Origin: an uncultured Methanosarcinaceae archaeon
GTDB taxonomy: Archaea; Halobacteriota; Methanosarcinia; Methanosarcinales; Methanosarcinaceae
Assembly (NCBI GenBank): GCA_963727895.1
Contig: CAVSHT010000009.1
Span: 192,001-256,000, forward strand
Length of the DNA stretch: 64,000 nt
Reading direction: 5' to 3'
Below, one piece after another: positions 41,255-44,649 of the stretch (position 1 is the stretch's first letter; the number at the start of each line of letters is the position of its first letter). A program made the position numbers and the translations under genes. Below the pieces are notes generated by a model. The model saw only the letters and a list, made by a program, of their open reading frames with translations. It was not told the DNA's origin and made no database searches.

Positions 41255-41704
41255 TCAGTATTTTGCAAGTTCAGGGATCTTCTCAAGAAGCTCATTCTTG
41301 AGCTCATTGGCTGCGTTATCAAGCATGGAACGTCCCTTTGCAGATACTGTTCTTCCGTCCTTTACTTTTTGCAGGTAACCTGCAGCTTCAAGCTGCTGTA
41401 CTGCTTTTCGGGCAATCGAACCGCTACCTTTTGCTTTGTGACCTGGCTTTGATCCATTGTCCTTCTTTCCACCATATACCGATCTGAGCCTTTCAATACC
41501 TATAGGTCCATCAGTATAGATTTTCCTCAGGATCGCTGCAGTTCTGATATACCACCAATCATCATTGGTTGGAGGGAGTTCCTTATGGACTCCTGTCTTT
41601 ACGTTCTGTGCCCACTCAGGGGGAACGATATTTTCATTTTCTTCAAGTATGCCTGCAACTTTCTCGATAAACTCCATTGCAGGGACATCAAATACTGTTG
41701 TCAT
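41255..41704 (-). CDS. rps19e: 30S ribosomal protein S19e
   Basis: [28 protein letters not shown] and GSGSIARK. Confidence 0.97.
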
Positions 41705-41990
41705 ACTCTCCACCTTTTCTAAATTAGGTTATCTTTGCAGATCCTGAGAGAAAGTGCCGATTCTTCTCCCGGGCTGCCAAAAATTTATTTTTCCCGAAAC
41801 GAGGTAACTCTTTCTCTTTCGAGAGGTCCTTTCCGATCTTTATAGCTGGATTTGCGAACTCTTATGGTTTGGGCTTTCATGCCCGATAAGCCGGTAAACG
41901 TGATTTTAGTTTTAACTGGAAGGAGGTTGATGTATTTATCAATTACTGTGTTTGATAAAATCATATACAATCGATCAAGTGATTTATAGG

Positions 41991-42185
41991 ATGAAAAACT
42001 TCAAACTGAAAAACGATCTAATTGTATTGAATTGGCTCTTGTCAATTGACGCAAGTACCAACACTGAGCGTAATTACTTTCAAGCTATAAAAGCATTTTG
42101 CGAATTCACAAAGAACGTCAGTTGAACTTATTCGGGAAGCTGAAAATAAAAGAAAAGCTGGTCTATGTATGAGAAGTGTATTAGA
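41991..42185 (+). pseudogene. N-terminal stub of a Methanosarcina-type tyrosine recombinase/integrase
   Basis: MKNFKLKNDLIVLNWLLSIDASTNTERNYFQAIKAFCEFT, frameshift, then ELIREAENKRKAGLCMR. Resembles the SAM-like N-domain; no catalytic domain present. Confidence 0.55.
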
Positions 42186-42247
42186 ATAGATTTCATTATT
42201 TTCACAGTAAAAATATCATATTTCAGAATATTTCATGCTATCAATTT

Positions 42248-43772
42248 AGCATGAAAGTACATGAGGAAATTATCCTCACGTGCTCTCTTGATCCTTTTTC
42301 CCCATAATCGCAAATATTCCACTAATTATTTTAATCAGTTCATCAACCGAAAAAATCTCAGTTTCAATAATCTTTCTCTTTTGGATTTCTCCCTTTTGAT
42401 ATCCGGTTTCATCTTCGTCCATCTCATCGTTTGTAATAAGATGCCATAATATCGTTGCAATTTTCCTTGCTAAGGCAATAATTGCTTTTGCATGTCCAAT
42501 CGACTTCTTTTTTCTGTTAAAAAACTATTTTAACCTGCTATTCTTCTTTCTTGCTGCTGCTTGAGCAATCTGTGTCAGAATCCACCTTGCTACTTTTGAT
42601 TCCCTCTTTGTGATTCTGCCGTTATAGTATTTATCTGCAGATTGATACACATTAAGAACTAGACCAAGCCAAGAAGCAAGCTTATTTCCAGAAGAAAAAT
42701 CCTTAAAGTTGCCTATTTCAGCAAGTAAAATTGCCGCACCAAGTTTCCCTATACCTGGAACTGACATTAAAATCTCCATTTCTCGCTTATGATTTCGAGA
42801 AGCATAATTGAAAATTTCTTTTTCTAAAGCTTCGAGTTCATCATCAAGACTTTTTATGAGTTTCAGACAGATCTGAAGTCTAAATGCAGCACTTTGAGAA
42901 ATTTCTCGATCAAAAATTTCTCTTATCTGAGCAGCTTTTTTCCGAACATTTGGAGAGAGGCTTGCAATAATCTGATCAACACTCTTACCTGAAGAGATTC
43001 CTAATAAGATCATTCTGCCATTCTTGCCAAAAACGTCTGTCAGAACATTATTCAGGTGTAGCATTTCAGATGCAAGAATTGAATTTCAGATGCAAGAATT
43101 GAGTGAGCTTTATTTTTTAAATCTGTTCTTTTTTGTACAAGTGTTAACCGAAGTCGAACATATGATCTAAAATCTATATGATCCTTTGGAAAAACTCTTG
43201 ATGGCTGAATCATATTATTAAGTGCAAGTTGTGCAATGACTTCTGAGTCAATCTTATCTGTTTTTGTATGGGTAAATACCTTCATATCTCGCGCATTTCC
43301 AACTATCACAGTTAGATGCTTTACCAATGAATCATGAATCGGAACCCAAAAGTCGCTGGTTGATTCACATGCAACAACATCACATTTTTCTGATATTACC
43401 CAATTTTTAAGGGCTAAAATTCCTTCATCATCTCTGTTGAAACGTTGCTGTTGTTTTTCACCAGATATACTGAGAATTGTAGCAATGAAAAAGAGTTTGT
43501 GAATGTCTAAACCACAAGCTTTGTTTATGACTTCAATCAAATTAGATCACCAAATTTATTTGGGCAGTGGAATTGCCTAAAAGGCCAATTTAGCATCCGT
43601 GATCAAAGTCACACTTGAGCCTTCGATGGCAATTCACTGATTAGTTTTAGGACGGTTTTGATAAACCAAAATCGAGACAACCTTACTGCCCAAGGTAATG
43701 AGGACTTAATAGTCAAAAAAAAGAACGGAGAGTACTGTCATTAGTTGTGCTTGTTATTCGAAGAAAAGCATG
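42248..43772 (-). mobile_element. IS110-family element with inactivated transposase (ATG 43540 to about 42270)
   Basis: RuvC-like GLDIHK, CEST and KTDKID motifs, and SVPGIG..AEIG..LASWLGL..QSA. AGCATG directly repeated at both ends (42248-53, 43767-72), no TIRs. A 20-bp duplication frameshifts the gene and there is an in-frame TAG at 42525. Confidence 0.9.
43560..43693. ncRNA. Candidate IS110 bridge RNA in the non-coding end
   Basis: Closing stem ttgggcagt/actgcccaa, inner stems gaattgcc/ggcaattc, aaggc/gcctt and gtga/tcac. Loop strand caatttagcat is identical to the insertion flank at 42242-52. Confidence 0.7.
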
Positions 43773-43780
43773 TGCGTTGT

Positions 43781-44273
43781 AGGGGTAAGTCACGTTTCTG
43801 TCCAAAAATGGATAAAGAAATTTGGTAAGGAGTTAGAGGCTCTAAAAAGTGAAAATGAGATATCTATTGTTGAAATGGATGAAATGCACACGTACATCGG
43901 TAACAAAAAAAAATATTGCTGGATCTGGATTGCTGTTGATAGAGTTGGGAAAAAGTTCATCAACTGCTCTTTTGGTAGCAGAGGAACGGAAACTGGAAAA
44001 CTACTCTGGGAAAAAGTGAAGAAAAAAGAGATTGGAGAAGTGATGACAGATCACTGGAGAGCATATGCAGAGTTTATTCCAGAAAAGAGTCATACTCAAT
44101 CCAAAGCAGAAACATTTACAGTTGAGGGATATAACAGCATATTGAGGCATTTCCTGGTAGATTGAGAAGAAAAACAAAGTGTTATACAAAAAGTCTTGAA
44201 ATGCTAAAGTACTCGGTTATTCTATTGATGAAATACAGAAATAAAGAACTAGATATAGTTAAGTAACAATGCC
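43781..44273 (+). mobile_element. 5'-truncated IS1 copy
   Basis: Near-identical to 17618-18110 and ends in right TIR taacaatgcc. A9 at the slip site and a frameshift near 44158. Confidence 0.9.
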
Positions 44274-44649
44274 AATTTACCTTCTGAGAAATCAAGCTGT
44301 AAATTTCAATATTTAATTATTGAATATATTTATAGTTTTATTTTTTGAGAATTGCAAGATCTGTTATAATAGAAAGAGTGAAAATAGTATAGATTATTTT
44401 ATATAAATTTTAATATATACAATTTTTATTATATATAATGTCATTATATAGATAGAAGGATTTATGTAATATAGCGTTTTCAACTATTTTTCATTACAGA
44501 TTAAACATTAATTTACTGAGGTACTACGCACTAGAGAAAATAAGGAGTTAACGTACTTTATGCACGCAACTACCTTTATAGTAACACACCGAGAGTGCCT
44601 TGACCACGGTACCGCCTGAAGAACAACAAATCGAAAAAGAGGCATACCA

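Follow-up and report, generated by a model that had tools for sequence, protein, structure and literature searches.

Evidence for a bridge-RNA-like left end with guide loops in a decayed archaeal IS110-family insertion sequence

We describe an insertion sequence (IS) of the IS110 family from an uncultured Methanosarcinaceae archaeon, situated in a 64,000-nucleotide stretch of contig CAVSHT010000009.1 (assembly GCA_963727895.1, positions 192,001 to 256,000 of the forward strand), which is referred to below as the window. It is very probable, in our judgement, that positions 42245-43776 (minus strand) constitute a decayed Methanosarcina IS110-family IS, the left end (LE) of which encodes a bridge RNA in transposase sense, with both a target-binding and a donor-binding loop. 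An initial annotation, made from the sequence alone, had recognized an archaeal IS110 element with a bridge-RNA-like structured RNA and guide loops in its long non-coding end, and this is supported by the presence of both family domains (PF01548 and PF02371), a conserved fold, and covariation between guides and flanks. Although the sequence features that it reported are real, that annotation misread the element's ends, the roles of the loops and the strand. To our knowledge, no RNAs other than bridge and seek RNAs determine both partners in a DNA recombination, and the characterized examples are all bacterial.

Results

Ends and core of the element

Probes placed just inside the element recovered 21 left ends and 20 right ends from its own genome (G000; 3.67 Mb in 19 contigs, 84% complete). 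On the + strand, all ends found read NN(A/T/G)TTTAG^CATGAAAGTA and ...AAGCATGTGCG^TTTTAG (carets mark boundaries), with G next in 19/20; homology extended to ...GCG^TTTTAG in 20/20 right ends and at TTTAG^CATG in 21/21 left ends, and shared sequence continues for about 10 bp beyond the right boundary proposed initially. In transposase orientation, LE begins with CGCACATGC at 43776 and the right end (RE) finishes with CATGCTAAA at 42245, of which the final AA is the core. The junctions, as read from the copies, 223 uninterrupted targets and 21 relatives, are CCTAAAA^CGCACATG... (LE) and ...CATGCTAAA^flank (RE), around a core of AA (TT on the + strand). The A counts are compatible with a single scheme, in which the donor is GCT-AAA^CGC and the target is cut directly after CCTAAAA; hence the core is AA, there is no further duplication, and the element occupies 42245-43776 in the window. 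The ends and this accounting of the core are established here, and the boundaries of the element are thereby corrected for annotation (Table 1).

The hexamer AGCATG, previously taken as core and boundary, is present at both 42248-53 and 43767-72, but was rejected in this role, being missing from the 223 uninterrupted targets and from LE of most relatives, and lying inside the ends mapped above. The empty target deduced from it, caattt-AGCATG-tgcg, is likewise untenable: tgcg represents the first four nucleotides of LE, and the ttt of caattt the last three of the element.

Table 1. Coordinates of the element, its putative RNA features and its surroundings (window positions).
Feature	Position	Strand	Description
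IS110-family element, ISMba20-like	42245..43776	-	1532 bp including the 20-bp duplication; based on flank comparison, uninterrupted targets and relatives
Transposase pseudogene	42276..43540	-	PF01548 DEDD_Tnp_IS110 and PF02371 Transposase_20; TTG start at 43540
Tandem duplication of a 20-bp unit, frameshifting	43063..43102	.	In 16/18 full own-genome copies; missing from relatives' contigs
Putative bridge-RNA scaffold closed by helix P1 (43685-43693 with 43560-43568)	43560..43693	-	Covariance model matches 43556-43705 at 169 bits
Target-binding loop and closing stem GGUUG (43678-82) / UAAUC (43639-43)	43639..43682	-	Stem 100% paired in 23 sequences
Right target guide	43668..43676	-	RNA CUCGAUUUU; reverse complement of core plus right flank AAAATC...
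Small hairpin P2, between the target guides	43654..43667	-	Pair 46:50 is C-G in 15, U-A in 6, U-G in 1
Left target guide	43645..43651	-	RNA CCUAAAA; identical to left flank plus core; 3' end is the predicted cleavage point
Long hairpin P3, stems 43628-35/43570-77 and 43619-24/43580-85	43570..43635	-	Carries the donor-binding loop and its hairpin 43599-43612
Donor loop 5' strand, including cacacttg of the initial annotation	43610..43618	-	Candidate right donor guide only; no convincing covariation
Left donor guide	43589..43596	-	RNA AUGCUAAA, RE terminus plus core; caatttagcat of the initial annotation minus three flank bases
Left target half plus core	43777..43783	-	CCTACAA here, CCTAAAA in other copies and guide; inside IS1-family transposase gene
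Right flank of window copy	42237..42244	-	TTGATAGC; not IS1 sequence; poor match to right target guide (predicted ATC...)
IS1-family transposase gene, interrupted, 3' part	43777..44165	+	PF03400

A conserved fold in the left end

The non-coding LE extends for approximately 236-240 nt upstream of the transposase start, and about 30 nt follow the stop. The 330 nt upstream of the start codon were aligned for the window copy and 22 relatives, with RE ends aligned separately; not included were the truncated L053-L055 and L059, the overly distant L056-L060 (L and G numbers denote loci and genomes), and L050, which has an insertion in the small hairpin. In the resulting alignment of 23 sequences (A1), a six-helix structure comprises 38 pairs, of which six are compensatory, and 94.7% of 873 cells are paired; its covariation score was reached in 0/500 shuffles, and slid controls gave 24-48% pairing. 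The closing stem proposed initially (43560-68 with 43685-93) corresponds to helix P1 (pair 19:146: G-C in 11, A-U in 8 of the 23 sequences), and, as had been described, a long hairpin with an internal loop lies within it. A covariance model built from A1 found a full-length match in 15 of 18 sources, including loci with proteins only 33-47% identical, and the three sources that it missed were without the upstream region. These matches lie just upstream of the transposase gene where coordinates were checked (L056, L081). Among 19 diverse matches, in an alignment fitted to the model, 23/38 pairs are compensatory, with at least one in every helix. The structure is established by these comparisons. 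No Rfam 15 family was found for the element RNA at E <= 1 over 41500-44500; a match to the C/D-box family sR1 at 41509-41569 (-), which scores 16.6 bits against a gathering score of 45 (E = 0.37) and lies in an open reading frame (ORF) of 152 aa (41255-41713), was dismissed as probably due to chance.

Predicted guides in the target-binding loop

Within this alignment, the conserved scaffold is broken by two hypervariable blocks of 6-7 nt, which flank the small hairpin. The block 3' of the hairpin is equal to the left flank plus the A-run (TCCAAAA in L039, CAGAAAA in L041, AGAAAAA in L042, GATAAAA in L045 and CCTAAAA in the window family), with exact 7-mer matches between guide and flank in L039, L041, L042 and L045. 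The block 5' of the hairpin, together with the next UUU, is the reverse complement of the A-run plus the right flank (AAAATAAGT in L045, AAAGAAAA in L036, AAATCGG in L041 and AAATCTA in L039). To the loci and the own genome we added 20 extra copies from complete genomes, and a regular expression search over the whole yielded 68 matches and 64 distinct junction sets, from which unique guide-site pairs were scored. Left guides (n=51) scored 6.25/7 against their own left flank and 4.47 for other guide classes, and were best or tied in 40/51; the corresponding values for right guides (n=55) were 6.29/8, 5.19 and 31/55, and for each guide 0/10,000 label shuffles scored as high. Covariation between guide and flank is thus established. 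The initial annotation had suggested checking whether its loop covaries with the target, and here the outcome was divided, in that blocks of the neighbouring loop (43668-76 and 43645-51) track the flanks, whereas the loop it had singled out tracks the RE terminus.

The order right guide, hairpin, left guide is found in 23/23 aligned elements. In a 6-mer guide search of three distant families, left-guide-like matches were found in 3/3, right-guide-like in 1/3 and left-donor-like in 1/3 (L091 only); L083, the only distant family with both guide-like matches, again has the right guide first, then the left. As a separate observation, the small hairpin that separates the target guides has, in L050 (G129), a loop enlarged by an insertion of some 80-90 nt, and this relative still scores 123 bits on the model.

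It could be argued that these blocks covary without any RNA, as DNA sites read by the transposase or as copied flank sequence, and that the fold is merely an element of the 5' untranslated region or promoter; no RNA was observed here, and the region does hold a likely ribosome-binding site (GGTGAT, 43546-51). We consider this very unlikely. The blocks occupy the single-stranded strands of one internal loop, in a fold supported by covariation; one is of the same sense as its flank and the other complementary, such that both converge on the core as in IS621 and seekRNA guides; and the protein belongs to a family shown experimentally to be RNA-guided.

Strand of the putative RNA

The initial annotation favoured a + strand RNA, antisense to the transposase, which the following evidence does not support. 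On the sense strand both target guides run from flank to core, the direction seen in IS621 and the other characterized systems, and on the antisense strand they would run from core to flank. The consensus fold of A1 (RNAalifold) is -26.8 kcal/mol in transposase sense and -15.7 kcal/mol on the other strand, where the structure is fragmented. Helix cells that are G.U in transposase sense outnumber those that are A.C by 67 to 10 in A1 and 48 to 19 in A3, with G.U at pair 30:66 in 23/23 sequences and at pair 85:130 in 20/23. Covariation at the level of DNA is blind to strand, and the window copy taken singly folds slightly more stably as the + strand, so that the same guide blocks might be imagined to act in an antisense transcript. 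Given the poorer consensus fold, the excess of G.U cells and the inverted polarity of the guides, and the fact that the RNAs reported in PMC11187229 to co-purify with these transposases are sense to the gene, we regard this alternative as very improbable.

The probable donor-binding loop and the 11-nucleotide repeat

The exact repeat caatttagcat (42242-52 and 43586-96), on which the initial annotation was founded, was confirmed as the only pair of matches in the 64-kb window, against 0.15 expected, with two matches reached in 1/100 shuffles. As RNA the 11-mer is AUGCUAAAUUG; it belongs to the 3' strand of the second hairpin's internal loop, and its first eight nucleotides are the RE terminus plus core. 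This left donor guide follows the RE end, CATGC(T/C/A)AAA, in 55/56 elements (T in 37, C in 17 and A in 1), with CATGCTAAA accompanied by AUGCU in 37, CATGCCAAA by AUGCC in 17 and CATGCAAAA by AUGCA in 1. The lone discordant element, L080, is a case of two tandem elements, where the regular expression probably picked the neighbour's end. (The pair L032/L080, in G203, comprises two related but distinct elements arranged head-to-tail about 400 bp apart, whose proteins are 89% and 84% identical to that of the window family and whose guides differ.) Because this strand of the loop covaries with the RE terminus, the loop previously described as target-binding is the donor-binding loop, and the target guides are in the loop adjacent to it. 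The same donor rule is seen in distant families, as RE ...CATGGGAAA with AUGGGAAA in G036, and RE ...CATGTGAAG with AUGUGAAG in G050; for L083 (G050), visual inspection of junctions and alignment gave ATGTGAAG as the left donor match. The last three nucleotides of the 11-mer (UUG) probably match the flank of the window copy by chance, as other copies differ there, and about nine distinct flanks make such a coincidence unremarkable.

The opposing segment, cacacttg (43610-17), had been compared with cgcacatg, the reverse complement of core plus right flank. The 6/8 match stands, but the segment faces the LE terminus, CGCACATG, and not a target flank. As RNA, CAAGUGUG matches the reverse complement of CGCACATG at 6/8 positions plus one U.G. 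It is not established as the right donor guide, since it overlaps the hairpin of the donor loop, which has compensatory changes, and LE variants are not tracked; the loop strand also resembles LE in the same sense (GC.CA..ATG), but the CATG palindrome confounds this comparison.

Taken as a whole, the initial model of an antisense + strand bridge RNA, in which the 43586-43617 loop binds the target caattt-AGCATG-tgcg, has next to no probability left: in its favour are the genuine 11-nt repeat and 6/8 match and the good fold of the window copy's + strand, and against it are the distribution of AGCATG among free targets and relatives, the identity of 8/11 nucleotides as element sequence plus core that covaries with the RE terminus in 55/56, the different bases in other copies at the three flank positions, guides that would run from core to flank on a + strand RNA, unlike any characterized system, and the 67 G.U cells that would turn into C.A mismatches.

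Target sites and flanks

Many flanks correspond to one or the other half of an abundant IS1-family element; 223 uninterrupted copies of this site were found, 0 with AGCATG. These uninterrupted targets conform to CCCCTAAAA(A)NTC and, in transposase orientation, comprise CCCC-TAAAA-CTCTT (136), TAAAAA-TCGT (46), TAAAAA-TCTT (12) and less frequent variants. Where the element has inserted, the left junction is CCCCTAAAA^CGCACATG... and the right junction is ...CATGCTAAA^ATCTTCC, ^CTCTTCC or ^TCGTCC. In the copies embedded in IS1, 9/12 IS1-type right flanks derive from ATC-type site variants, which make up approximately 63/223 free sites. Insertion sites in the own genome are mostly within the part of this very abundant element that codes for a helix-turn-helix, and targeting by guides would explain why IS110 copies sit at one codon position of an IS1-type gene. 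With about 223-230 copies in the 3.67-Mb assembly, this IS1-family element (or a derivative of it) is unusually numerous, and it serves as the chief insertion target of the IS110 element.

The 18 full copies fall into classes with both flanks in IS1 (8), neither (4), the left-target side only (3, including the window copy) and the right-target side only (3), which is the pattern expected after reciprocal exchange between copies. The symmetry of the one-sided flanks (3+3) suggests exchanges between IS110 copies, either by homologous or by half-site RNA-guided recombination. As the window copy is among the three with IS1 on the left-target side only, its right flank was probably swapped by recombination between copies. 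Its left target half carries a T>G change (+ strand) at 43779.

Transposase and copies in the genome

The transposase frame of the window copy is not intact, owing to the 20-bp duplication and a premature stop at 42525-42527, and two ORF fragments remain, one with PF01548 (E = 1.3e-20) and one with PF02371 (E = 6.6e-24). This copy cannot itself make transposase; its RNA scaffold is intact, with differences from the best own copy confined to the loop of the small hairpin. The own genome yields 23 alignments with the element that reach 1 kb or more, their identities ranging over 92-100%, and 24 copies of the non-coding RNA region by covariance model. Apart from the best copy, the transposases in this genome are disrupted by stops or by the duplication. 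That one 20-bp duplication is common to 16/18 full copies indicates that the defective form has multiplied; mobilization in trans, riding in IS1 copies, or gene conversion could each account for its spread.

Relatives

The nearest catalogued elements are ISMba20, ISMma5 and ISMac14, from which the window copy differs in being a pseudogene; the window family shares 89% amino-acid identity with the ISMba20-type protein. Homologues of the 390-aa ORF of the best own copy (E <= 1e-30) were found in 101/301 sampled genomes of the class, including G000, and in 26/39 of the same genus. For 4/5 same-genus relatives looked up, the intact 414-416-aa protein is identical, letter by letter, to a record of the National Center for Biotechnology Information (NCBI). 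In three of the four cases, the name 'IS110-like element ISMba20 / ISMma5 / ISMac14 family transposase' is carried by the record itself or by another member of its cluster (Methanosarcina barkeri, M. mazei and M. acetivorans), and the fourth record belongs to an ISMma5-type cluster under its own title of 'IS110 family transposase'. For a sixth relative, from a different genus, the matching record is from Methanolobus. On NF033542 ('IS110 family RNA-guided transposase', cut-off 140), one intact relative reaches 277 bits, and its Tnp domain aligns with the IS621 structure 8wt6 (E = 2.9e-10), with GLVPNVYQS placed opposite GLTPRRYES (the G--P----S motif).

Discussion

In the mechanism that we propose, helix P1 would close a target-binding loop composed of the stem GGUUG/UAAUC, the right guide CUCGAUUUU, the small hairpin and the left guide CCUAAAA, and the second hairpin would form a donor-binding loop, the 3' strand of which, AUGCUAAA, equals the RE terminus plus the AA core. 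If events proceed as in IS621, this RNA would allow the recombinase to bring the circle junction, ...CATGCTA-AA-CGCACATG..., together with targets of the form CCTAA-AA-ATC..., and the top strands would be cut just past the core; the predicted circle junction, ...TTTCATGCTAAA-CGCACATG..., has three A. We infer that the active molecule is RNA, and likewise its strand and ends, the formation of a circle, and catalysis.

Several points weigh against this interpretation. No fully intact transposase was found in the own genome, where the best copy is open for 392 of approximately 414-416 codons. Direct evidence of RNA is wanting: the 24 RNA-library runs listed contained only about 6% of the sampled words, and in four of these runs contigs from relatives, 85-99% alike, span the element and include one of 179 nt over 43546-43701; such contigs show neither the strand nor the ends of an RNA and do not demonstrate that the region is transcribed. 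The window copy alone folds better on the + strand (-46.2 kcal/mol, z -4.2) than on the minus strand (-42.5 kcal/mol, z -3.1). Its right flank (TTG...) does not fit its own right guide, and its left flank contains a mismatch. More generally, the right target guide is top among the guide classes in just 31/55 junctions, and the shuffle tests overstate independence because elements within one genome are related. Finally, a search of the donor loop for the reverse complement of the core plus CGCACATG did not identify a right donor guide.

The window family shares several properties with IS621, as described in PMC11208160 and PMC11208158. The putative RNA lies in a long left end upstream of a gene for a DEDD/Ser recombinase; its first loop is variable and would bind the target, and its second is conserved and would bind the donor; the left guide is of top-strand sense and the right guide complementary, both including the core; and the predicted top-strand cut falls immediately after a 2-nt core. 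The differences lie in the core itself (CT in IS621, AA here), in the recombinase (326 aa, against 414-416 aa, with only the Tnp domain alignable at E = 3e-10), and in the order of the guides. According to those sources, the IS621 bridge RNA is arranged as stem, left target guide (50-58), stem-loop and right target guide (77-80), whereas in the window family the right guide precedes the left one (5' to 3') within the target loop, and apparently also within the donor loop.

In PMC11187229, ISEc21, which is IS110-type with its non-coding region upstream, has the bottom-strand match 5' of the top-strand match, and the seekRNAs of IS1111 elements (ISEc11, ISPa11 and ISKpn4) have the reverse order, are encoded downstream of tnp, and accompany transposases of 330-350 aa. 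The window family resembles the latter in that the segment complementary to the top strand is 5' of that complementary to the bottom strand, but differs in having its non-coding region upstream, rather than downstream in the right end, and a transposase of 414-416 aa. That source mentions rare exceptions among IS1111 elements with upstream non-coding regions (ISMtsp17), the RNA of which is not described there, and gives 7-17 bp for subterminal inverted repeats of the IS1111 type. Relatives of the window element have CATGAAA in LE and TTTCATG in RE (7 bp), and the window subfamily has little beyond CATG, as read by eye.

Among the papers listed by our literature search, none joined Methanosarcina with bridge RNA or with IS110. 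ISMac14, ISMba20, ISMba7 and ISMma5 occur in the supplements of PMC11208160 and PMC11187229 only as tree or matrix entries, with no description of their RNA in the text searched. The RNA of the window family may already have been modelled in a 2026 preprint (10.64898/2026.10.21.760802), because this covers 32,190 bridge RNAs in 86 covariance models, many unlike IS621.

We tentatively propose, at slightly less than even confidence, a clade of archaeal IS110 elements whose left-end bridge RNA has both of its loops in circular permutation compared with IS621, the right guide coming first, such that a gene position of IS110 type is combined with a guide order of IS1111 type, and which has been naturally reprogrammed to many AT-rich sites, among them the IS1 transposase gene and, apparently, the 3' ends of CRISPR repeats in two genomes. 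Its members would be found in Methanosarcina, in Methanolobus and in another family of the same class, at 33-47% protein identity. If true, this clade would be an evolutionary link between the IS110 and IS1111 groups. The window family itself indicates that the order of the guides and the position of the RNA within the element can be uncoupled. At least 16 left-guide and at least 20 right-guide variants, along with the insertion sites that match them, form a natural series in methanogens amenable to genetics, and offer ready test cases for RNA-guided recombination in archaea.

IS110-family copies were also observed within CRISPR-like arrays (L089 and L090 in G036; L092-L094 in G182), with proteins 33-36% identical to the window family and a scaffold that scores 27-35 bits (model R1). 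One of these arrays has a 25-nt and the other a 36-nt repeat, both ending in ATTGAAAC, and the repeats recur at intervals of 72-75 bp to either side of the IS. In G036, LE directly follows a repeat, and L091 has a lone repeat-like flank, ...ATGAAAC, with no array. At the position of the left target guide, the RNA carries CGAUUGAAAC in G036 and, by alignment to the model, in G182, which suggests RNA-guided homing to the ends of CRISPR repeats in these two genomes.

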